A DNA stretch of 62,122 nt, counting the filler. It is 15 parts of 15 records of this genome, joined end to end, with 100 filler letters (N's around TTAATTAATTAA, not from the genome) between each part and the next. Parts side by side here need not be neighbours in the genome. Positions count along the whole stretch, not along the records: positions 53,510 to 58,575 come from SRR7504441_72125; 14 more parts are not named here. One strand, written 5' to 3'. The notes beneath the pieces were generated by a model that saw only the letters and a list, made by a program, of their open reading frames with translations, had not been told where the DNA came from and did no database searches. How positions within the stretch are numbered: position 1 is the first letter of the stretch; each line of letters starts with the position of its first letter. Made by a program: the position numbers and the translations under genes. Shown here piece after piece: positions 3,286-59,893 of this stretch.

Positions 3286-3385
3286 NNNNNNNNNNNNNNN
3301 NNNNNNNNNNNNNNNNNNNNNNNNNNNNNTTAATTAATTAANNNNNNNNNNNNNNNNNNNNNNNNNNNNNNNNNNNNNNNNNNNN
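3286..3385. other. Artificial contig spacer (first of 14)
   Basis: 100-bp N run with a central TTAATTAATTAA (stops in all frames). Identical spacers at 7228-7327, 10984-11083, 14442-14541, 17615-17714, 22095-22194, 25350-25449, 29357-29456, 36153-36252, 40565-40664, 45226-45325, 49304-49403, 53410-53509 and 58576-58675. Confidence 0.98.
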
Positions 3386-7227: not shown

Positions 7228-7483
7228 NNNNNNNNNNNNNNNNNNNNNNNNNNNNNNNNNNNNNNNNNNNNTTAATTAATTAANNNNNNNNNNNNNNNNN
7301 NNNNNNNNNNNNNNNNNNNNNNNNNNNCCTTCAGACCCAGACAGACCCTATACACTTCGGACTGCATGGCCTAGAAGCGTTTATTAAAAAAGTTATCCTG
7401 ACAGCAAAATTCGGTTTTCACCGGCCTGCCAGAGTCCACGTAGATCTAGCAGAATCGATGAAGCAGCAACTTGTGTATTTTAA

Positions 7484-10913: not shown

Positions 10914-11083
10914 CGTGTTCCCACCTCACGTCCACAGCGCGATAAGCCGAGAGGCAAGCGTGTTTCAAACTACGGTACATGTANNNNNNNNNNNNNNNNN
11001 NNNNNNNNNNNNNNNNNNNNNNNNNNNTTAATTAATTAANNNNNNNNNNNNNNNNNNNNNNNNNNNNNNNNNNNNNNNNNNNN

Positions 11084-13422
11084 TTGCAACAGAAGCAGGA
11101 TTGAGGGCATCAAGTGGTCCATCAGCAGCTGGGTAATAGCTGGGAGCTCAGTCTCAACAAGCGCAATGCACACCTGGCCAGCCAAGCGATCAGTGGGCTG
11201 CCGACGCACCACAGGCAACAGTTAAGAGGCTCAGCTCGCCGGACCTTGAGTGCGAGGTGGGCCTGGTACAAGTCGCTCTCTGAAATCAGCGGGGCGAGCC
11301 CTTCGACCAGCTCGAGCATGACTTGCTCAGAGATCCGGGCCACATTCTTGCTGCGGATCAGCACCTCGAGAGTCTGCAGCGAAGATTGCTTCACAGCTGT
11401 CAGCTTCTTCCGGAAAAAGTCGACGAGCTGCTTGACTGCAGTCTCGACAGTCTCCCCAAGGTCGATATCATGCTGGGCCAGTGACCCGATCCCAATAATC
11501 CCGGGGGTGCGGGTGGTTTCGTTACCTAGGCGATCAGTCAATACCTCGAGTACCCCGCCCAGCTGAGATTTGAGACTGCTCTGTCCAAAGTGCGCCATCA
11601 GAGTGCACATGGCCTCGATCGCACACTCCTTGACCTCTTGGTCGATATCCTGGGTCAGGAAGCGGAGTGATACAGCGTCGTAGATCGGCTGCACATGCTG
11701 CACCAGGCTCTTGTCATCTGCCTGGGCGATGATGGTGGTCACTATCTTCAATACCCGCAGCGATTCTGCGGAGACCTTGAAGTACGTGTCTTGAGCCCCG
11801 TCCTTGCCCAGCACGCCATCCAGGATCTGTCCCAGGTGCGGCTCAAGCAGTGCGCTGTCGTGCCCCTTCAGGACGGTACACAGTAGCCGAAGCGCCTCGA
11901 GCTTCAGTGTCGTGGTGGTGGGCGCGACAAGGGAGCGCTTCAGCCCGCTGATCATCTGGCCAATGCCATCGGCAGAAAGTGCTGACGGCAGGACGTTGAG
12001 CACCTCTGACATCACTGCGATTGCGCCCACCCGAGTCTTGATCTTCTTCTGACGCTTATTGTTCAGATCTTTGGCAAGGATTTTCACCACCCTCGGCACA
12101 CGCGCCATCAGCGCTCCAATCGCCCCATCCTCTGGAGAGCCGCTGTCGATCTCCATTGCATCGGGCGAGCTCTCAGTGGCAATCGAATTGGCCACAAGCT
12201 TGGTCTGCTTCACGAGGGCCGCAAATGCGTTGAACACCTCCAATTTGACGGGCTCAAGCGGCTCCTTGAACCGGCCAATCAACGTGTCGGCCACAGTGTC
12301 GTAGAGCTGCGCCAGCTGGTCACTCCTGGTCGACGCAATTGACTTTACACACTTGGCCGCAGCCCGCCGGACCTTGTAGCTGGTGTCCTCATCAAAGTCC
12401 TCATCGTCCCATTCCTCCTCCTCCTCGTCCTCTTCCTCGTCGTCCTCCTCCTCATCGTCATCGTCGTCGTCCTCACAAAACGGATTGTAGTTGAGCAGTC
12501 GGAGCGAAACCTCCTGGATCTGGGCCAAGTGCCGGTTGGCGTCTCGCGGGCAGCGCAGCACAAATGCGTCGAACACCTGGATGATGTTCTCCATCAGCTC
12601 GAACACTGGGTCCTCTTGCTCCTCCTGCTCCTGCAGCGCCACGAGCACCTCAGAGAGCAACGGCACCATTCTGTCCATAAAGGGCCCCACCCTCGCCCCA
12701 CACTGCCGGGCGACTGATCCAATCGCCTGGATGGCCGTCCGCTGCTGCTCAATTGCGGCCCGGTTGCTGTCGACGTTTGAGATCAGGAATTCCATCAGGT
12801 GACTGAACAGCTGGTTCGACAGCGAGGGCGCCAGAAAGCCTATGCACTCCTTGGCTCGGCGTCGTATGGCCGGCTTGGAGGACATCAGGTGCGGCTGCAG
12901 CTCGTCCAGGAATGCCTGGTGCTCCTTGGCAAACAACTGCCCGAACCGCTGCGAGAGGTCCTTCGCCAGCTCCATGCACTCGCTGGCCACCTCCGGCGCG
13001 CCGTCCGCCATGCCACCAATCAGCCGCGGGATCAGGCACTTTGTAATGCGCTGGGCGCAGGAGCCCTCCGGCATCTCGGTGATCAGCACCTTGAGCGCAA
13101 GGCTGAACACAGAGCGGCGGTCCTCCTTCCCCTGTACCACTGCCGTGATCATCCGGGTGGCCAGCTCGTCGGCGTTGGCCTCGGAGATGCGGGTGACCAG
13201 GTGCTTGATGCAGGTGTTGCAGTTCTCCTGCACCGGCTTGGAGCTGTCCACCTCCAGCCGCTGCAGCACGAGGTTGCAGATCTTGCGCTCCTGGTCGCCA
13301 TCGAGCCTGAGCGAGCCCGCCTGGAGGCCCTTGTACAGGTCAGCAGTTGCCACGATCCGCAGGTCGGCGTCTGCATTGGTGACCTTCTCGACGATGCTCG
13401 CCAGGGTATAGCTCGACGTCAT
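11084..13422 (-). CDS. CAND1: Cullin-associated NEDD8-dissociated protein 1, 3'-truncated
   Basis: N-terminus EKVTNADADLRIVATADL, acidic tract followed by DTSYKVRRAAAKC, QDIDQEVKECAI and DRLGNETTR. One 71-nt intron at 11174-11244. Confidence 0.92.
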
Positions 13423-13585
13423 ACCGCTGAACCTGGCGCCAGTCCCGAAGCACTCACACCGAGCCTCGGTTGAGTTCCGTTGGAGCTCGCCGTGGCCACG
13501 CATCTGCCACGCCCCCTGAGAGAGTGCGCGACGGTCAGGCCTAGCCAGCTGCTCCGTGCCTGCGTCTGGTGCCAATCGTCCATCG

Positions 13586-14441
13586 ATGTCGAAGCGGAAG
13601 CGCGAGGGGGAGCGCTGGATCCCGCCCAAGCAGGCTTTCCTGCGCAAAGCCCACGAGCTGACCTTCACAGTCCGGGCGGAGCCGAAGAAGCTCGGCAAGG
13701 GCTTTGGCTGGAGCAAGGCCGGGGGGCGGTCCACTCAGCCTCTAGGGGATGACCTGGGCGGCAGTGCCCTGTGCTCGGGCCCCACATTCAACGGAAACGT
13801 GCTGAACTACAGGGACTGCGGTCTGGAGCTGGACGCGTTCATGAGCGGAGCCGAGCCGCTGGACTTTGAGATCCAAACGCTGCCGTATGAATTCAGCACG
13901 GGGTCGCTCGGATGGGAGGGCCACATGAAGCGGACAGTGACTGTGGCTGGAAAGACGCTGCAGCTTCAATGCAATCTAAACTGTCCGATCCTGGGCTCAA
14001 AGGGGGACGACACCGTGCCTCCTGCTGCTCCCGAGAACAAGAAGATACTCGAAGCGCTCGAGGTGATTGGGAAGGCGACTGCCACGGAGAAGGACGATCT
14101 GAAGAGAGTGAGCGGCATTGGGCCTTTCATCGAAGCCCGACTGCACGGGATCGGAATCTTCACCTTCCAGCAGATTGCTAACATGACCCCCGAGATTGAG
14201 GATGATGTGAATGAGGCGATTGAGTACTTTCCCGGGCGAGTGCGCCGCGACCAGTGGGTAGCACAATGTAAGGAGTTTGCCAGGAAGAAATCAGGCGACT
14301 CAAAAGGGAGGAAGAAGAAAGCGTCACTCACAAAGCAGAAGAAGAAGCTCGAGGGAGAAGACGAGGCGGAAGAAGAAGAGATGGACGATTTCATTGTGGA
14401 TAGCAACGATAGCAACGATGGACAAGCCGACTATGACGAGG
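13586..14441 (+). CDS. Putative DNA-binding protein: duplicated FSTGSxGW-type domain, bacterial-type helix-hairpin-helix domain, basic/acidic tail; 3'-truncated
   Basis: DDLKRVSGIGPFIEARLHGIGIFTFQQIA..RDQWVAQ is an HhH module. Internal repeat AFLRKAHEL..GFGW / AFMSGAEPL..FSTGSLGW. KRKR and KKK clusters look like nuclear localisation signals. Confidence 0.72.
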
Positions 14442-14714
14442 NNNNNNNNNNNNNNNNNNNNNNNNNNNNNNNNNNNNNNNNNNNNTTAATTAATTAANNN
14501 NNNNNNNNNNNNNNNNNNNNNNNNNNNNNNNNNNNNNNNNNTGCCCGATCACGCCGATGTTGACCGTGGCCAGGTTGTGTATCGGCGATTAAACGATTCA
14601 GTACAATTATCTCCGTATTTCGTTGAAGCCTGTACTGGTAATATTAAACGATGCCTAATGTAAGCTTAGTCATTACCGATCGAGCAAGATCTCGAGTATT
14701 AAAGTGACCGCTGG

Positions 14715-17614: not shown

Positions 17615-17714
17615 NNNNNNNNNNNNNNNNNNNNNNNNNNNNNNNNNNNNNNNNNNNNTTAATTAATTAANNNNNNNNNNNNNNNNNNNNNNNNNNNNNN
17701 NNNNNNNNNNNNNN

Positions 17715-22094: not shown

Positions 22095-22194
22095 NNNNNN
22101 NNNNNNNNNNNNNNNNNNNNNNNNNNNNNNNNNNNNNNTTAATTAATTAANNNNNNNNNNNNNNNNNNNNNNNNNNNNNNNNNNNNNNNNNNNN

Positions 22195-25349: not shown

Positions 25350-25449
25350 NNNNNNNNNNNNNNNNNNNNNNNNNNNNNNNNNNNNNNNNNNNNTTAATTA
25401 ATTAANNNNNNNNNNNNNNNNNNNNNNNNNNNNNNNNNNNNNNNNNNNN

Positions 25450-29274: not shown

Positions 29275-29456
29275 CCCCCCGCTCTACGCCTCCCCCCAGC
29301 CCCACTGCAGGCTCATCCCCTGCGGCGATACGCAGCCGCTGCCTGTGCCACTGGGTNNNNNNNNNNNNNNNNNNNNNNNNNNNNNNNNNNNNNNNNNNNN
29401 TTAATTAATTAANNNNNNNNNNNNNNNNNNNNNNNNNNNNNNNNNNNNNNNNNNNN

Positions 29457-36152: not shown

Positions 36153-36252
36153 NNNNNNNNNNNNNNNNNNNNNNNNNNNNNNNNNNNNNNNNNNNNTTAA
36201 TTAATTAANNNNNNNNNNNNNNNNNNNNNNNNNNNNNNNNNNNNNNNNNNNN

Positions 36253-40462: not shown

Positions 40463-40936
40463 ATCTATTGCGATCACGCGTGATCGAAGAGACTCAATTC
40501 ACTACGAGTATCAATTCAATTTATTAGATACAAGTAGTTTAATTTAGGCAATACTCTTGTGTTANNNNNNNNNNNNNNNNNNNNNNNNNNNNNNNNNNNN
40601 NNNNNNNNTTAATTAATTAANNNNNNNNNNNNNNNNNNNNNNNNNNNNNNNNNNNNNNNNNNNNGGGCCAATGAGTCCAAGAGTAAATCCTTTATTACGC
40701 TTGTAGAATATCAGATTGTGCTTGAATTGGCAATTGTACGAGTACATGGTCTTTTACTAGTGTTATAATTATATCACCCCAAAGCTGTTGGAAGCGCGAA
40801 AATTCACCCCTAATATCACCCTTGCTTTTATTGCTCCTATCGTGCATTTTAAAGGTAAAAATACATGTACTGCGGCTAGCGCTTGGACGGCTCGAAATGC
40901 TCCGCTTGGTCGTTGGCAGGTCCTGTCACTGCAAGT

Positions 40937-45225: not shown

Positions 45226-45325
45226 NNNNNNNNNNNNNNNNNNNNNNNNNNNNNNNNNNNNNNNNNNNNTTAATTAATTAANNNNNNNNNNNNNNNNNNN
45301 NNNNNNNNNNNNNNNNNNNNNNNNN

Positions 45326-45349
45326 TTCAGACGTGTGCTCTTCCGATCT
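45326..45349 (+). other. Illumina TruSeq adapter remnant
   Basis: TTCAGACGTGTGCTCTTCCGATCT at the contig start. Confidence 0.97.
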
Positions 45350-49149: not shown

Positions 49150-49403
49150 GGTCGGCCTTCCCGAATTGGTCGGCTGTCTGCGACCGCGGTCATGCTGGCA
49201 AGCTTAAGCTTTGGAGCATGCGTCGAGCTGTTATGGCCACACGACAGGCCGAGTACCTGCTAATCCCAAAGCATATGCCTACACACGCATGCAACGAGCA
49301 TGCNNNNNNNNNNNNNNNNNNNNNNNNNNNNNNNNNNNNNNNNNNNNTTAATTAATTAANNNNNNNNNNNNNNNNNNNNNNNNNNNNNNNNNNNNNNNNN
49401 NNN

Positions 49404-53264: not shown

Positions 53265-53898
53265 GGTTGCGAGCGTCCGCCTGTGCTGTCCGTTATTTTT
53301 GATACGGTACGCAGTACATCCGAAGTTCCGAATGACGAACACACACCCGAGTTCGCGAAGAGACGTTTTTTAAAAAGCATACCATTAGAGGAGACAAAAT
53401 TAATGCTTTNNNNNNNNNNNNNNNNNNNNNNNNNNNNNNNNNNNNNNNNNNNNTTAATTAATTAANNNNNNNNNNNNNNNNNNNNNNNNNNNNNNNNNNN
53501 NNNNNNNNNCCAGGGCGCAGTGCCGCTGAGGATAACGAGCTGACTGACTCAAGTATGCAACTCTGAGCAGTGGGCGCTCAAAATTAAATCTATAGCCGCG
53601 CGAGGAACCTCAAAATACCGGCGCGCGCGATTTTTTCAGTTCAGTTCATACCTGATTGCAGATAATGAACATCTAAAGGCTTCGAGTAGGCTTCAGAGCA
53701 CTCATACCGAAGCGCGCGAATGGGCCAGACTTAGAAATAGAAATCGTCTCGCCTCATTCTTCTATCATTCTTCAGTCATTTCTGTATACGCCCCTTTGGT
53801 TTTGACCAGAGTCCAAGGTCGGCGTGTGGATTATTGATTCCAGCAGCTGAGCTGATCCGTTCAAGGGTGCACGCATCCCGGAGCAAAGACTTGGCGCC

Positions 53899-55396
53899 AT
53901 GACATCCGAGCCGACGCCCCCCGGCGAGCTGCCTCCGCCCGGGACTGTGCCAGACGACGACAACGACCCGCGCCGGCCCCGGCAGCTCCCGCAGAGCATG
54001 GCCTTCGCCCAGCAGATGGCCGAGGCCGAGGCTGAGCGGCTCGCCAGCGAGCGTGCTCTTGCCCCGCCCAAGCCCGCCTCGCCCGAGAGTGGCCGCCGCT
54101 CCCCGCTCAAGAAAACCGAGGTGCGCGGCCCGGGGGGTCGATCGGGTCTGAGCCGGGGAGGCAGATGTGCCGGTATGTCCTCGAGTGCAAGCCGTGCCCG
54201 TTCGGCGTCGACTGCTTGTTCGCGCACTCTGAAGGAGAGCTCCGGTGCTGGGTCGGCCGGTCGGGGCTGAGCGGGCGGGTAGGACCGTCTCCAAGAACCC
54301 CAACTACAAGTCGGTCCCCTGCCGCCATTTCTTCGGCAAGGCCTGCTACTGCCCCTTCGGCACTCGCTGCGACTATCTGCACGATCCCCGTGTGAGCGCC
54401 GCCCGCCGGGTGGTCACGATCCCCCGTCGAACCGGTCGCCGGGGCAAGCCCGAGTTCCCGCCGGCCAGCCCCGGGACGATGGTAGTCCCCAGTCCGAGCT
54501 CCGGCTCTGCGGGTTGGCGGCACGCGTGGCAGCCTGGTTCACCTGCTAGGAGTGAGAGCGACTGGAGCGACGGCGAGAGCGGCGAGTCGACCGGGCTCAG
54601 CTGCGACAGCTGGGAGAACAGTTCGTTGAGCAGCCACGGCAGCTCGGGGCTGGGCTCGCCGGAGCTGTCGGCTGTCGACTTGGCGATCGAGCTTTGTCGG
54701 AGTGATGCGATCAAGATCAATCCGACCGGCCCGAACGGCCCGACCCGGCTCCGGTACAGCGGCGCCGAGTGGCACCCGGCGCTCGGGCTTCTGGTCAAGG
54801 ACCCGCAGTCTCATTCCGTGTCGCGGTGGCCTGGCCGGCTCGACGGAAGCATTCTGAGCAAGATCCTCTCCAAGCCCGACCAGACCGCTCCACCCGGCTG
54901 CGGCCAGCTGATCGAGCCGCCCGGGCCCGGGTTCCCGGTGTTCAAGCCGTCGTGCCCCAAGATCCGGCCCGGCGCGCACGACGCTGCGACCCTCGCGCCT
55001 CACTCAGGCGGGCTGACTCCCATCGCCGAGGGTACCGCCGGGGTAATCCAAGACCCTGGCACTGGTCACTGCCACCCCCGGCCGGCTGGGCCCGGCTGCT
55101 ACTGCCCGGACGACTCAGGGCTCCACTGGGTGGGCCCGGCGCCCGGCCTGCTCGGGTGGGTGCAGCCCGCTCTGAGCATTTTCGACGTGCTTCCCAACAG
55201 CATGGCGGTGCCCAACAGCTGCGGGCAGTCCAGTCGGTCGAGTGCGGACGGGCCGCCGCTCTGGGCGGAGCATGAGGAGCTTCTGGCTCGAGAGATGGAA
55301 GGCACGCTCGAGCTGCTCACACTCGAGGCGCAGCTGGAGCTCAGCGAGGAGCTGGACCTTGACTCTATCACCAACCTGTGCCTGGACGGCTGGTAG
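53899..55396 (+). CDS. Tandem CCCH zinc-finger protein (TIS11/tristetraprolin-like), 2 introns
   Basis: KKTE|MCRY..CPFG..C.FAHS..ELR|..NPNYKSVPCRHF...YCPFGTRCDYLH. Confidence 0.82.
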
Positions 55397-55889
55397 ACTG
55401 AGCAGGTGCACTGGATGCGCAGTGGTATTATATCGTGCGCACTGGATGTTGAGGCATTTGGCCGTACGGAATGAGGTTGTGAAGCGACGCTTACAAGTGT
55501 CGTCTGTTCAGGGCGAAAGTGGACCCGAGGAGATGAGCACGGCGTGCTGCGAGGGGACTGCTGGCAGATGCATGCCTGCAGCTGGAGTGGTCTCCTCGGC
55601 GTGAGGATATAGATCGATATTCTATCGATGAATCGTGATCGATCCGGCGGCGAGTGCTAGTATTAAGGATATGCAATTAAAGATTAATCAAGACGCGAAT
55701 ATAATGAACGGTCTATGGCCCGCAATGACTCATCACATGCGAATCGTTGTAATCAGGACAACTACATGTAGCGAACGCTGATATACGATAAGGACAAGTA
55801 TTGTGCGACGAATAATCGAATGCCACCCACCCTAGCCGCTCTCGCTACCAACGGACAGCACCACGACCCCTGCCCAGCAAACTCTCCGG

Positions 55890-56318
55890 TCATCGCTTAA
55901 ATATCCCCGGGTTGGGTCTACATGTGGACTCCCGCTCGCCCGCTGCCACTATACCGTACAGCGTCGCCCCGTCGCTGATCCCGAGCTCGCTCAGGCTTCC
56001 TTCCCCCATCGGCTGCAGCTCACGCCTCCCGCCCGGCCCAGCCGTTGCGCAGATCAGCCGGCGTAGCTCCAGCCCGTGCTCAGCCTGGATCTTGCCGATC
56101 AGCGAAGCTTGCGTGTCAGTGGCGCCAGCCGAGATCGACACCAACCGGCTGTGGCCCTGCCGCTGCCGGAAGCCCGAGCGCCAGCCAAACTCGTCCGCCG
56201 CGTCCAGCCCAGCTGTCGGCACCCAGCCGCCATGGACCGCGTGCGTCCCGACCACCGGCACTTGCACCGAGAGCCTCATCAGCTCTCCAGCCTGTGCTGG
56301 TGCGGAGACAGCCGCCAT
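55890..56318 (-). CDS. Small protein with ubiquitin-like C-terminal domain
   Basis: TDTQASLIGKIQAEHGL..RRLI.....SLSELGISDGATL pattern. Confidence 0.5.
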   Translation of the reverse strand: MAAVSAPAQAGELMRLSVQVPVVGTHAVHGGWVPTAGLDAADEFGWRSGFRQRQGHSRLVSISAGATDTQASLIGKIQAEHGLELRRLICATAGPGGRRELQPMGEGSLSELGISDGATLYGIVAAGERESTCRPNPGIFKR

Positions 56319-56379
56319 TTTGGCGGGAACGGCACTTTTTCTTCGTCCAGGTCGCATCCGATCCATCACTGCAGTCTCG

Positions 56380-58416
56380 ATGAAGGTCGACGCGGTGTCG
56401 GAGCTGCGCGCCAGGTTGGCGGGCGACCAGCCGAGCCACGGCCTGTGGGTAGCGCTGCGAGACACGGCGGTCACCGAGGCGGCCGTCGGGCTGGGGCTGG
56501 ACTGGGTGGTGGTCGACGCCGAGCACGGCTCACTTGACTGGGCTGACATCTCCCATCACGTGCTTGCCACCGCCCGGAGCAAGACTTGCTGCATCGTCCG
56601 AGTGTCGAGCTCGGCATGCATCGACCTGCCCGGGGCCGCGGCCCAGGTCAAGCGCGCGCTCGACATCGGCGCCGACGGCGTGATGATCCCAAACGTCGAG
56701 ACCGCAGACCAGCTGCGCACTCTGGTGGGGTACGCCAGGTATCCGACGGCCGGGGTGCGCGGGATCGGGGCCGACCGGGCGACGGCCTGGGGCGAGGCGA
56801 TTCCGGAGCATGCCGCTAACTGCGCCCGCGTGCCCCCGCTGGTGGTGGGGCTGCTCGAGAGCTTCAGGGCGTACCAGAACAGGGCTGCCCTTGCAGCGGC
56901 CGGGGACTTTTTCTATCTGGGCCCCGCGGACTACAGCGCGACCAAGGGGTTCGCAGGGCAGTGGGAAGCCCCGGGGGCGGCAGAGGAGCTCAAGTCGATG
57001 GCCGAGGCGATCCGGGCGGAGGGCAAGCCTGTGGGCGTGATGTGCTCGAGCGTGCAAGACATGGCGGCCCGGGCCGGGCAGGGGTTTAACATGCTCGGGA
57101 TCGGGTTCGATATGGGCCTGATGCTCCGCTCGGCCCACTCGATGCTCCACGCAGCAGGTCGAGACTGCAAGCTGAACAGCTCGGTCACACCACCAGCGCC
57201 GAGCCTCGAAACTGCCCAGAGCCGCAGGTTTGAGGTCGACCGGTCGGAGGAGCTCAAGCTGCTGTTCATGGGGGCTGGGGCGGTCGGGGGCTACACGGCG
57301 GGAATGCTGGCACGAGCAGGGTTTAACGTGACGTGCGTGGATCAATACATCGAGCACGTCGAGAGGATCAACCAGTCGGGGCTGCGAGTGGCCACCCCTG
57401 AAGGCAACTACACGGTGGCCGCAGTCAAGGCGTTGCACTTGCACCAGCTCCAGCAGCTGCCCCGGGCGGCGTACCACTGCATCTTCATCGCGGTCAAGTC
57501 TTACGACACGGAATGGGTCACTCAGATGGCTTTGCCTTACCTGCACCCATCGGGCGCGTTCATCTCGCTCCAAAACGGTATCAACGACCACCGGATGGCC
57601 GCCCAGATCCCCAACGGCAGCAAGCACGCCCTCGGGGCCGTTGTGACCGCCGCTGTCGGGTGCCTGGCTGCTGGGAAGGTCGAACGTTGGGATTCGAACC
57701 CGCAGTGCTACGCGTTTGGCGAGCACGACGGGGCCGACAGCCCGCGGATTCGGCAGCTGGTCGGGCTGTTCGACAAGGCCGGCGTGGGCGGGGCTAAACT
57801 CAGCTTTAACTTGTGGGGCGCGCGCTGGTCGAAGCTTGCGCTGAACTGCTTCATCAACGTCATGGCCGGGCTCACTGGGCTCTCCTCCCAGGGGGTGCGC
57901 ACTGGGAGCACTACGGTGCCCATGGGCACGCTGATGGCCGCCGAGACTATCCGTGTGGCCCAGGCCAAACAGGTTGCTGTCGAGCCTCTTATGGGGATTG
58001 CACCCGAGATGTTCCTCGAAGCTGCAAGCGGTGGCGCGCTGGCTCCGCTTGTAACTGCTCTCCGGCAGCAGGCTAAGTGGAACGAGAACGGCAAGGCCTC
58101 GTTCCTGCAGGACGTGATCAAAGGCCGCCGGACCGAGATCGAGTATCTGAACAAACTAGTGGTCGATGAGGCGGCCAGGCTCGGGATCGATACCCCGTTC
58201 TGCAAGGCGGCCACCGAGTGGGTTTTGGCGAACGAAGGGTTTAACCCGGACCCGGTCAACGTCCAGGCGGTGAGCGAGCTGCTGCCGGCCGTCCAGAGGG
58301 AGCAGCTGCGCCGGCTGACGGCTCAAGTGGCCGGGATGGAAGATCACTCACGTGCGGCTGAGCCGGAACCGAAGCCGCCAACGTACAGCTTCCAAGTGGC
58401 TGGACGCATCCTGTGA
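56380..58416 (+). CDS. HpcH/HpaI-family aldolase fused to 2-dehydropantoate 2-reductase (PanE/ApbA family), intronless
   Basis: Aldolase: DWVVVDAEHG, IVRV, KRALDIGA.GVMIPNV, LLES, GPADYS. Reductase: MGAGAVGG, IAVKSYD, LQNGI, WSKLALN, KASFLQDV..GRRTEIEYLN. Confidence 0.92.
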   Translation: MKVDAVSELRARLAGDQPSHGLWVALRDTAVTEAAVGLGLDWVVVDAEHGSLDWADISHHVLATARSKTCCIVRVSSSACIDLPGAAAQVKRALDIGADGVMIPNVETADQLRTLVGYARYPTAGVRGIGADRATAWGEAIPEHAANCARVPPLVVGLLESFRAYQNRAALAAAGDFFYLGPADYSATKGFAGQWEAPGAAEELKSMAEAIRAEGKPVGVMCSSVQDMAARAGQGFNMLGIGFDMGLMLRSAHSMLHAAGRDCKLNSSVTPPAPSLETAQSRRFEVDRSEELKLLFMGAGAVGGYTAGMLARAGFNVTCVDQYIEHVERINQSGLRVATPEGNYTVAAVKALHLHQLQQLPRAAYHCIFIAVKSYDTEWVTQMALPYLHPSGAFISLQNGINDHRMAAQIPNGSKHALGAVVTAAVGCLAAGKVERWDSNPQCYAFGEHDGADSPRIRQLVGLFDKAGVGGAKLSFNLWGARWSKLALNCFINVMAGLTGLSSQGVRTGSTTVPMGTLMAAETIRVAQAKQVAVEPLMGIAPEMFLEAASGGALAPLVTALRQQAKWNENGKASFLQDVIKGRRTEIEYLNKLVVDEAARLGIDTPFCKAATEWVLANEGFNPDPVNVQAVSELLPAVQREQLRRLTAQVAGMEDHSRAAEPEPKPPTYSFQVAGRIL

Positions 58417-58675
58417 TTATAAGTGATGGCCGACGACGTTTAAACTAATTGCAATCCAGTGGCCATGCACATGCATGCAAGGTTGCGGCGGCAAGTTTCA
58501 TACATGACGTTGTAAGCTCGTAAGCTTGCCTAGGTTCCATGGTATGAAGCTTCAACCTTAATTAACTCCCATTCGNNNNNNNNNNNNNNNNNNNNNNNNN
58601 NNNNNNNNNNNNNNNNNNNTTAATTAATTAANNNNNNNNNNNNNNNNNNNNNNNNNNNNNNNNNNNNNNNNNNNN

Positions 58676-59795
58676 GCGTCCCGTTGCCATTCAAAAACTC
58701 CCGGTGGAAAACACCCGGGGCGACTTCGGCGCCGTTTGCGGTCGGGGGGCCAGGGACCAGGTCAAAGAGAGGTGACCAGGGCGGCGTCGGCCAGTTGTAG
58801 GGGCACCCCACGCATGTTGAGAGTCTTAGCAACGAGTTGCCATTGGCGCTCCGTGCGATGAGGAAGGCGGCCACGCTCGCATTGATGTGCTGGCCTGCCG
58901 AGAAGCGGCCACCAAAGCCGTGCAGCATTATCATGGTCGACTCCTTGGAGGCATTCCTGCCGAATTCAATAAAGTACCGCATCGGCTCCGCGCAGTGCTC
59001 CTGTGAGACCTGAGGCTTGTCACACGCAGCCGTGGGACCGTTGGGCTTATACGCGGTGAGGAACTTGCCGCTTGCCGCGGCGGCGGCGCTGACTCTCTCG
59101 ACCGCGCCGTGCAGCGCGACGTTGTTTGCCCTGCGCTGGTCGTCGGGGAGCACAGAGTCACACGCGCAGTCGAAATACACGCCTGCTATATTAGGCTCGG
59201 CCAGCGCGCCACCAACGAACGTGTCGGCCCACCAGGCACGGGCCGCCGGTTCCGAGAAGTTGAGCCAATACTGCTTGACAGGGCCCGAGAGTAGCGGTTG
59301 GGCCTCGGATCCGCGCCACTCGGGCCCGGCTATCGGCCCGCTGGCGTTGCGTAGGAAGAACGCTGCCGACCGCGGGTCCTGCATCCGGGCGCGCGCGCAA
59401 TCCCATAGAGGGCTGACTACCTGGTCGTTCCGGAGGGCCAGCACCTTTACCGCCGGGTCGATCGCTTTGAGCGCGGCGGCCAGCTGCCGCTCGACACGCT
59501 CGATGTGCCCGATGTGAGAGTTAGGCTCGCTACCGGTTAGCTGCCAGCCAATCCCCACGTGGCCGAACCTGGCCAGCTGGGCGTTGAGTGCCGGGCTGTT
59601 GAGGCCCGAGTTGTTGCCGGTGAAGAAAAGGGCCAGCGACGCCGATACGGGCCGCGCGAGCAGCGATCGGCCCCATGGCAGCGCCGGCGCCTGGCGCCAG
59701 CTCGAAGGCGGGGTTGCGAACATCCAGTTGGGCTGCTCGCCGCAGTCGTCGGAGAGGACAGCCGCCACCAGAAGCATCCAGCAGTGGCATCGCAT
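58676..59795 (-). CDS. Secreted putative glycoside hydrolase (TIM-barrel, GHL15-like), 3'-truncated
   Basis: Signal peptide, YWLNFSEPAARAWW, GVYFD, AAFLIA and GPP..PGVFHREF.NG. Confidence 0.62.
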
Positions 59796-59893
59796 CTTGG
59801 TCAGGCACCCGTTCGGCACCAACCGGCCAGCTGCAGGTCCGTTGCAGTCATCAGCCGCACCGGGCGAAGCACCGGCAAGCCCAGCCTAAGGCC

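Follow-up and report, generated by a model that had tools for sequence, protein, structure and literature searches.

The window analysed here is a 62,122-nucleotide stretch of DNA in which 15 unlinked contigs are chained together, and at positions 56380–58416 of its plus strand it carries the complete coding sequence of a fusion protein (P0001; 678 amino acids plus a stop codon) that joins an aldolase of the HpcH/HpaI family to a reductase of the ketopantoate reductase (KPR; PanE/ApbA) family. This is almost certainly a genuine two-domain fusion gene. It is a nuclear gene of an uncultured marine eukaryote, the habitat reading being restricted to marine metagenomes and metatranscriptomes, and it represents a genuine, rare and uncharacterised domain architecture drawn from two well-known enzyme families. 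The analysis demonstrated the gene and its two folds, showed that the catalytic residues are intact and that the fusion recurs, and established a bacterial affinity for each of the halves. The family-level assignment of both halves is secure, while a specific assignment is not, because neither half reaches the HpaI, GarL, RhmA or PanE equivalog cut-offs. A literature search, judged mostly by titles and listings and with subscription-only papers and supplements outside its scope, returned no paper on an HpcH–ketopantoate reductase fusion, which agrees with a preliminary description of this DNA, made from the sequence alone, in which the fusion was not known as characterised.

The preliminary description had also reported a single open reading frame (ORF) holding both domains with their catalytic motifs intact, and this was borne out by the 678 codons, the Pfam matches and the alignments to HpaI and to clade members. 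Six Pfam families matched at E ≤ 0.01. HpcH_HpaI covers residues 21–249 with 80 bits (cut-off 25; profile positions 3–219 of 221), ApbA covers residues 296–437 with 83 bits (cut-off 22.2) and ApbA_C covers residues 477–615 with 68 bits (cut-off 22.7); the PanB family PF02548 is absent from the six, and the aldolase half is not a PanB. The frame is uninterrupted and colinear with the environmental protein P0002 at 60% identity. It is stop-free upstream to 55912, with the first in-frame ATG at 56380, and GC by codon position in the upstream 468 nucleotides is non-coding-like (0.57/0.70/0.74) compared with that of the ORF (0.67/0.49/0.83). Residue 1 of the fusion lines up with residue 1 of bacterial aldolase homologues, and its GC content at third codon positions (GC3) of 0.83 is similar to that of the CAND1 (0.79) and kinase (0.79) genes in the same assembly. 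Spurious long frames do occur in GC-rich DNA here, such as a 398-residue antisense ORF at 56530–57726. The fusion ORF is nevertheless more than chance, because its domains are matched with E-values of 1e-22 to 1e-23, its relatives are 50–61% identical and both domains fold.

In the AlphaFold2 model, built from a 56-row alignment, the mean predicted local distance difference test score (pLDDT) was 87.6 and both domains lay mostly above 90, while the stretches of at least three residues below 50 were a loop (131–139), the core of the linker (265–279) and the C-terminal tail (660–678). The predicted template modelling score was 0.64, and therefore no fixed orientation between the two domains is predicted; among the chains listed by Foldseek, none spans both halves.

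The N-terminal half (residues 1–258; 56380–57153, plus strand; PF03328, 80 bits) is a class II, metal-dependent 2-oxoacid aldolase domain, with pLDDT mostly between 84 and 97. When it is aligned to the HpaI chain 4b5s, H49 (56524–56526), R74 (56599–56601), E160 (56857–56859) and D184 (56929–56931), all on the plus strand, face H45, R70, E149 and D175, of which we take the first two to be the catalytic His and Arg and the last two the metal ligands; E160 and D184 are the same in P0002. HpaI was matched in the PDB (2v5j, E = 2e-26), identity to HpaI/HpcH, YfaU/RhmA and GarL is about 27–29%, and the Foldseek template modelling score, TM(target), is 0.82–0.85 to HpaI, HpcH, YfaU and GarL. The fusion aldolase thus has the Pfam family, the fold and the aligned H, R, E and D in common with these enzymes. 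They were solved as stand-alone chains of about 250–290 residues, whereas the fusion aldolase has a reductase attached, a C-terminal GRD(C/R)K extension and a 7-residue insertion; the insertion follows the catalytic R74 and occurs in the eukaryotic fusion copies only. All NCBIfam equivalog scores fall below their cut-offs, with 129 bits against 368.8 for HpaI, 102 against 406.75 for GarL and 89 against 441 for RhmA, and a further score among these models of 108 against 393.

The two halves are connected by a linker at residues 259–290 (57154–57249, plus strand), in good agreement with the preliminary placement near 57150–57255: block-mean pLDDT is 40–73 over residues 250–290, a low-confidence stretch that includes the core at 265–279. 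The start of the linker (AAGRDCKLNSS...) is common to bacterial fused aldolases and the remainder is variable. Its GC3 is 0.57, against 0.82–0.87 in the domains, and in P0002, P0052 and P0067 it is poorly conserved and varies in length, yet the frame is kept.

Beyond the linker, a complete reductase spans residues 291–659. Its NAD(P)-binding Rossmann domain (residues 291–437; 57250–57690, plus strand; PF02558, 83 bits; pLDDT above 90) contains the GAGAVG motif at 57271–57288 (G298-x-G300-x-x-G303) and N399 at 57574–57576. The helical substrate-binding domain ApbA_C follows (residues 477–615; 57808–58224, plus strand; PF08546, 68 bits), with the conserved residues K485 (57832–57834), S574 (58099–58101) and E586 (58135–58137), as well as N489, N493 and D578. 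An alignment of 16 clade members shows little or no variation at G298, G300, G303, N399, K485, N489, N493, S574, D578 and E586; for the three glycines, N399, K485, S574 and E586, conservation is 90% or higher, up to invariance, and the reductase motif residues are all unchanged in P0002. N399, K485, S574 and E586 presumably correspond to N98, K176, S244 and E256 of E. coli PanE. A C-terminal helical extension (residues 616–659) and a disordered tail (residues 660–678) complete the chain (58225–58413, plus strand). Within the extension, helices 626–632 and 637–651 are confidently modelled, and helix 656–660 lies in a block of mean pLDDT 73; the extension is common to a clade of bacterial KPR-like proteins of about 350 residues, and the tail is absent in P0002.

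The fusion reductase shares with PanE/ApbA and with the D-mandelate dehydrogenases of the KPR family the two-domain KPR fold, the GxGxxG motif and the K/N/S/E set; it differs from PanE in belonging to the ~350-residue bacterial clade, in its extra helical extension and in meeting no PanE equivalog. The apbA_panE subfamily model TIGR00745 was passed (151 bits, cut-off 141.35), while every PanE equivalog cut-off was missed, the best being NF005091 with 98 bits against 252 and the others being relatively lower. By Foldseek, TM(target) is 0.86–0.88 to ketopantoate reductases, including those of T. kodakarensis and P. aeruginosa, and to D-mandelate dehydrogenases alike, and identity to solved KPR-family structures is 19–25%. 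In the ESM Atlas, the matches were limited to generic KPR clusters at 0.81, too low to count as evidence.

The domain-architecture search for HpcH plus ApbA that the preliminary description had proposed did reveal recurrence of the fusion. One of 50 matches among 5.8 billion clusters holds both domains, namely P0002 (574 residues, N-terminally cut); an exhaustive HMMER search gave 14,008 matches at E ≤ 0.001, and its listing comprised the top 150. When 200 retrieved proteins were compared by blastp, three truly spanned the junction (P0002, P0052 and P0067), and the metagenome contig L081 is a fourth junction-spanning relative, matching residues 222–650 at 61%. P0007 was rejected as a further junction-spanning protein, being an aldolase-bicupin whose alignment merely continues. 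The junction-spanning relatives are 50–61% identical to the fusion and come from independent environmental assemblies (JGI, ENA), and four fragments with one domain each (P0053, P0129, P0091 and P0064) match at about 48–70% identity. Judged from the alignments, the two active sites are intact, and they are conserved in all relatives whose sequences extend over them.

The gene was described at the outset as intronless, which holds for the copy in the window and fails for its relative L081. Inside the reductase domain, L081 carries a 68-nucleotide segment (425–492) that starts with GT and ends with AG, and that consists of a telomere-like (AACCCT)n run between copies of a 27-nucleotide direct repeat. 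With the insert removed, L081 reads as one frame of 439 residues, 80.5% identical to P0002 and 57.7% identical to the query. P0052, which lies on another contig, has this insert too, shortened by one repeat unit, and the insert has the look of an intron acquired recently through break repair. An EF-hand protein and an acidic low-complexity protein are further products of L081.

Expression is indicated by contigs of poly(A)/oligo-dT marine metatranscriptomes, which match 56415–56994 and 58053–58458 at 95–99% and extend 42 nucleotides beyond the stop codon. A 35-nucleotide RNA piece (X11; 56976–57010) was disregarded, as it is less than 90% alike and continues into unlike sequence.

The possibility that the fusion is an artefact, either because two genes were wrongly assembled into one or because a bacterial contig was placed in a eukaryotic assembly by mistake, draws on the make-up of the window, in which short contigs are joined and one of them has an adapter-like end at 45326, on the size of the fusion contig (5066 bp), on its sole companion ORF with merely a weak CCCH signal, and on the bacterial nearest relatives of both halves. 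Neither a chimeric assembly nor bacterial contamination is likely, because the architecture recurs, the GT..AG insert is present, poly(A) RNA matches the gene and its GC3 resembles that of other genes in the assembly. Moreover, the same junction occurs in JGI as well as ENA assemblies, the insert-bearing L081 has its EF-hand and acidic low-complexity genes, the poly(A)-selected RNA runs past the stop codon, and the contig has a low coding density and an AT-rich 3' flank. Altogether, the artefact appears so improbable as to be nearly negligible.

Separate trees were computed for each half, as had been advised, and in each of them the eukaryotic copies form one clade inside bacterial clades. In the aldolase tree (34 domains), four eukaryotic copies form a clade with a Shimodaira–Hasegawa-like approximate likelihood ratio test (SH-aLRT) support of 100, nested in a larger clade (SH-aLRT 99) of bacterial aldolases at 45–52% identity. 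Nearly all of these bacterial aldolases carry one or two C-terminal cupin domains, the only named member of their clade is a protein from a Planctomycetota metagenome-assembled genome (MAG), and the GRD(C/R)K motif that opens the eukaryotic linker is also found in the bacterial fused aldolases. In the reductase tree (44 domains), six fusion-type sequences form a clade (SH-aLRT 100) inside a 25-row clade (SH-aLRT 99) of the ~350-residue bacterial KPR-like proteins, at 33–45% identity, from Chloroflexota, Rokubacteria, Methylomirabilota and others. Since each half branches inside bacterial clades, both halves look bacterial in origin. Among the sequences retrieved here, the HpcH–ApbA architecture itself was found in eukaryote-type sequences only.

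Two KPR-like genes in the reductase tree, from a Verrucomicrobiia MAG (L002) and an archaeal Nitrosotalea MAG (L006), are near-identical, with end branches of 0.07–0.09, which suggests that a gene was transferred recently or that binning went wrong. The tree rows do not include L014, another contig of this Nitrosotalea MAG.

As to function, it is roughly an even call that the two domains share a 4-hydroxy-2-oxoacid intermediate. In such a scheme, the N-terminal divalent-metal-dependent aldolase, of the HpaI/YfaU/GarL type, would catalyse the reversible addition of pyruvate, or of a different 2-oxoacid, to an aldehyde, giving a 4-hydroxy-2-oxoacid, and the NAD(P)H-dependent reductase of the ketopantoate reductase family, to which the aldolase would be tethered by a flexible linker of about 30 residues, would interconvert this product with a (2R)-2,4-dihydroxyacid. 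The pair might run in either direction, towards the synthesis of a 2,4-dihydroxyacid (or its lactone) or towards the breakdown of an acid of the 3-deoxy-aldonic type. Characterised members of the KPR family convert 2-oxoacids to D-(R)-2-hydroxyacids. We infer the consecutive order of the two reactions, the stereochemistry and the cofactor.

A parallel case is P0055, a protein of 629 residues on a 31.9-kb environmental contig, in which an N-terminal aldolase of the same clade (about 50–52% identity) is followed by a C-terminal 2-Hacid_dh domain. P0055 and the fusion have in common an N-terminal aldolase of one clade and a C-terminal NAD-dependent 2-oxoacid reductase; the reductase of P0055 belongs to an unrelated fold family, and P0055 is a single representative, uncharacterised and presumably bacterial. 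Coupled aldol addition and 2-oxo reduction is favoured because the same aldolase clade is here paired with a 2-oxoacid reductase of unrelated fold, and this parallel fusion, the strongest point in favour, supports a link between aldol chemistry and 2-oxoacid reduction. In addition, the proposed reaction order is favoured because a cascade in the same order works in vitro: the aldolase YfaU or KPHMT followed by E. coli KPR is reported to yield 2-hydroxy-4-butyrolactones (Moreno et al. 2023, PMC10127515). The man-made cascade and the fusion use the same enzyme families in the same proposed order, aldol addition then 2-oxo reduction, with 2-hydroxy-4-butyrolactones or 2,4-dihydroxyacids as the outcome; the cascade employs separate enzymes and non-natural substrates in vitro, whereas the fusion is one polypeptide of a wild organism, known from its sequence. 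With its intact sites, the recurrent fusion, P0055 and the in-vitro cascade, the two-step aldol/reduction idea of the preliminary description is the best-supported reading, while the PanB-bypass part of that idea gained no support.

Several observations weigh against the coupled reading or loosen its footing. Among the bacterial relatives of the reductase, an HpcH gene lies within 6 kb at only 3 of 80 loci. The 128 nearest-neighbour ORFs that entered the Pfam count (19 of 147, longer than 640 residues, having been dropped beforehand) contain 103 Pfam families, none in more than three ORFs and HpcH in two. Where a KPR-like gene does stand directly beside an HpcH aldolase gene, at the loci L041 and L048, it falls in the other KPR-like clade. 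The commonest fusion partner of the aldolase clade is a bicupin, not a reductase, so that the chemistry of this clade need not involve 2-oxo reduction. Both trees are quick maximum-likelihood searches with SH-aLRT support only, and among the short contigs of four RNA runs none crosses 57011–58052, leaving the linker unbridged.

The variety of partners joined to this aldolase clade (bicupin, single cupin, 2-Hacid_dh and PhyH), together with the lack of a consistent aldolase–reductase linkage in bacterial neighbourhoods, would also fit a protein with no metabolic coupling, whose domains catalyse unrelated reactions or in which one domain is idle and serves oligomerisation or regulation. Such an arrangement is improbable, given that the catalytic residues of both halves are kept across copies just 50–60% identical and that four or more diverged sequences still have the architecture.

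At two bacterial loci, a KPR-like gene immediately precedes the gene for an HpcH aldolase. At L048:5827-9733, from a Planctomycetaceae MAG, a BNR sialidase gene follows the pair, and at L041:5092-7810, from a Spirochaetia MAG, SDR and DUF2961 genes precede it. The aldolases of both loci are only 22–27% identical to the fusion aldolase, and PanB and PanC are canonical in both genomes.

These carbohydrate-type contexts are in line with another form of coupling, a catabolic one, in which the aldolase would split a 2-keto-3-deoxy (sugar or dicarboxylic) acid and the reductase would act on a cleavage product, as in the E. coli GarL/GarR pair, the model that such a system would resemble. The closest models for the dehydrogenase half of P0055 are those of PGDH and glyoxylate reductase, glyoxylate being both an aldehyde and a 2-oxoacid, and a stand-alone relative of the fused bicupin adjoins genes for an Ldh_2 dehydrogenase and an SMP-30/gluconolactonase. 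The characterised substrates of the KPR family (ketopantoate and benzoylformate, by structure entry titles) are, however, larger than glyoxylate, and the L041 and L048 reductases and aldolases are distant from those of the fusion, as described above. We consider catabolic coupling possible, though distinctly less probable than a shared 4-hydroxy-2-oxoacid. The candidates for the reduced product would be an aldehyde (glyoxylate, tartronate semialdehyde, lactaldehyde or glycolaldehyde) or pyruvate, giving D-lactate, and they are offered just as tentatively.

The preliminary description had further suggested that the fusion makes pantoate without PanB. As a folate-independent pantoate synthase, it would convert 2-oxoisovalerate and formaldehyde to ketopantoate in the aldolase half and then, with NADPH, to pantoate in the KPR domain. 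The PanB plus PanE pair offers the same formal chemistry, in that both could conceivably hydroxymethylate a 2-oxoacid and then reduce its 2-oxo group; the fusion aldolase is not a PanB, and no folate-binding role is implied for it. The passing of TIGR00745 and the retention of the KPR residues K, N, S and E speak for a pantoate synthase. HpaI-type aldolases normally use pyruvate, which counts against it, as does the failure to reach any PanE equivalog. Similarity in fold to D-mandelate dehydrogenase equals that to true ketopantoate reductases. Moreover, each of five bacterial genomes checked has 1–10 KPR-family paralogues, and two of the five lack PanB and PanC matches over cut-off, although MAGs may be incomplete; these paralogue counts and PanB/PanC-less genomes suggest that most of the KPR family does not serve pantothenate synthesis. 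PanB and PanC are retained in the L041 and L048 genomes. On the other side stands the production of 2-hydroxy-4-butyrolactones by a 2-oxoacid aldolase plus KPR in vitro, as reported in that study (PMC10127515). On balance, the PanB-bypass idea is weakly disfavoured, and its chance of being right is slim. Equally slight is the prospect that the protein is a pantoate synthase replacing PanB and PanE in marine protists or, more broadly, a (2R)-2,4-dihydroxyacid/lactone synthase new to plankton.

Other fusions of the two families were encountered in the same searches. The bacterial HpcH-cupin family, with one or two cupins, comprises P0003–P0013, P0056–P0058, P0060 and P0063, with a further gene at L087:10-1668 on the minus strand. 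It is present in one of 301 sampled Planctomycetota genomes. The aldolase clade is rare in this phylum, any part of the query being matched in 4 of the 301. The Planctomycetota gene contexts are uninformative or mixed, with Rieske, ABC and cyclase genes in some and Ldh_2 and lactonase genes in others. For the fused bicupin, the PDB and NCBIfam gave weak matches only (KdgF, DddK and dioxygenases, E 0.003–0.4) and no clear characterised relative, and the mandelonitrile lyase model scored 39 bits against a cut-off of 140. P0193 is an uncharacterised fusion of HpcH with a PhyH-type dioxygenase. P0136 (854 residues) has the odd architecture of a Trefoil (P-type) domain followed by a C-terminal KPR-like reductase.

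The contigs of the window are separated by 14 identical artificial spacers of the form N44-TTAATTAATTAA-N44, spaced 3–7 kb apart and located at 3286–3385, 7228–7327, 10984–11083, 14442–14541, 17615–17714, 22095–22194, 25350–25449, 29357–29456, 36153–36252, 40565–40664, 45226–45325, 49304–49403, 53410–53509 and 58576–58675. Stop codons in all six frames within a spacer are the usual device for joining contigs. As the contigs so joined are unlinked, nothing can be read from the order of genes on the two sides of a spacer. The fusion gene lies on a contig of 5066 bp (53510–58575), bounded on the left by the spacer at 53410–53509 and on the right by that at 58576–58675, 160 nucleotides past the stop codon. 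A GHL15-like gene (58620–59822) was considered as a neighbour and rejected, since the right-hand spacer puts it on another contig. The only other sizeable ORF of the fusion contig (54245–55396, plus strand; 383 residues) shows one weak CCCH zinc-finger motif close to its N-terminus (E 0.02–0.08), the rest being low-complexity and Ser/Pro-rich.

The assembly's other contigs code for proteins that are clearly eukaryotic, including CAND1, an actin-like protein, sacsin and a CDK-like kinase. The CAND1-like ORF (11122–13734, minus strand) shares 73% identity with a EukProt transcript but no more than 34% with any named organism, and by these identities the DNA seems to come from a protist lineage that has been poorly sampled. 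The contig starting at 45326 opens with Illumina-adapter-like sequence (...AGACGTGTGCTCTTCCGATCT; 45326–45349), which suggests that untrimmed reads entered the assembly.

Gene fusion is among the strongest hints, from sequence only, that two enzymes act in one pathway, and the fusion described here gives a clear biochemical hypothesis, with as yet no evidence of a new pathway. It is a rare natural counterpart of the hand-assembled cascade of an aldolase and a stereoselective ketoreductase for chiral 2-hydroxy-4-butyrolactones, and a single-chain, possibly channelling enzyme of this kind could serve as a biocatalyst. If it were a pantoate synthase, it would constitute a new route to vitamin B5. 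The fusion also marks a wider, unstudied set of aldolase fusions with bicupin, 2-Hacid_dh and PhyH partners. It combines bacterial-type metabolic domains into a new architecture in a eukaryote. In uncultured marine eukaryotes, a pathway of 2,4-dihydroxyacids or 3-deoxy-sugar acids may have gone unrecognised, and the fusion may be a pointer to it.

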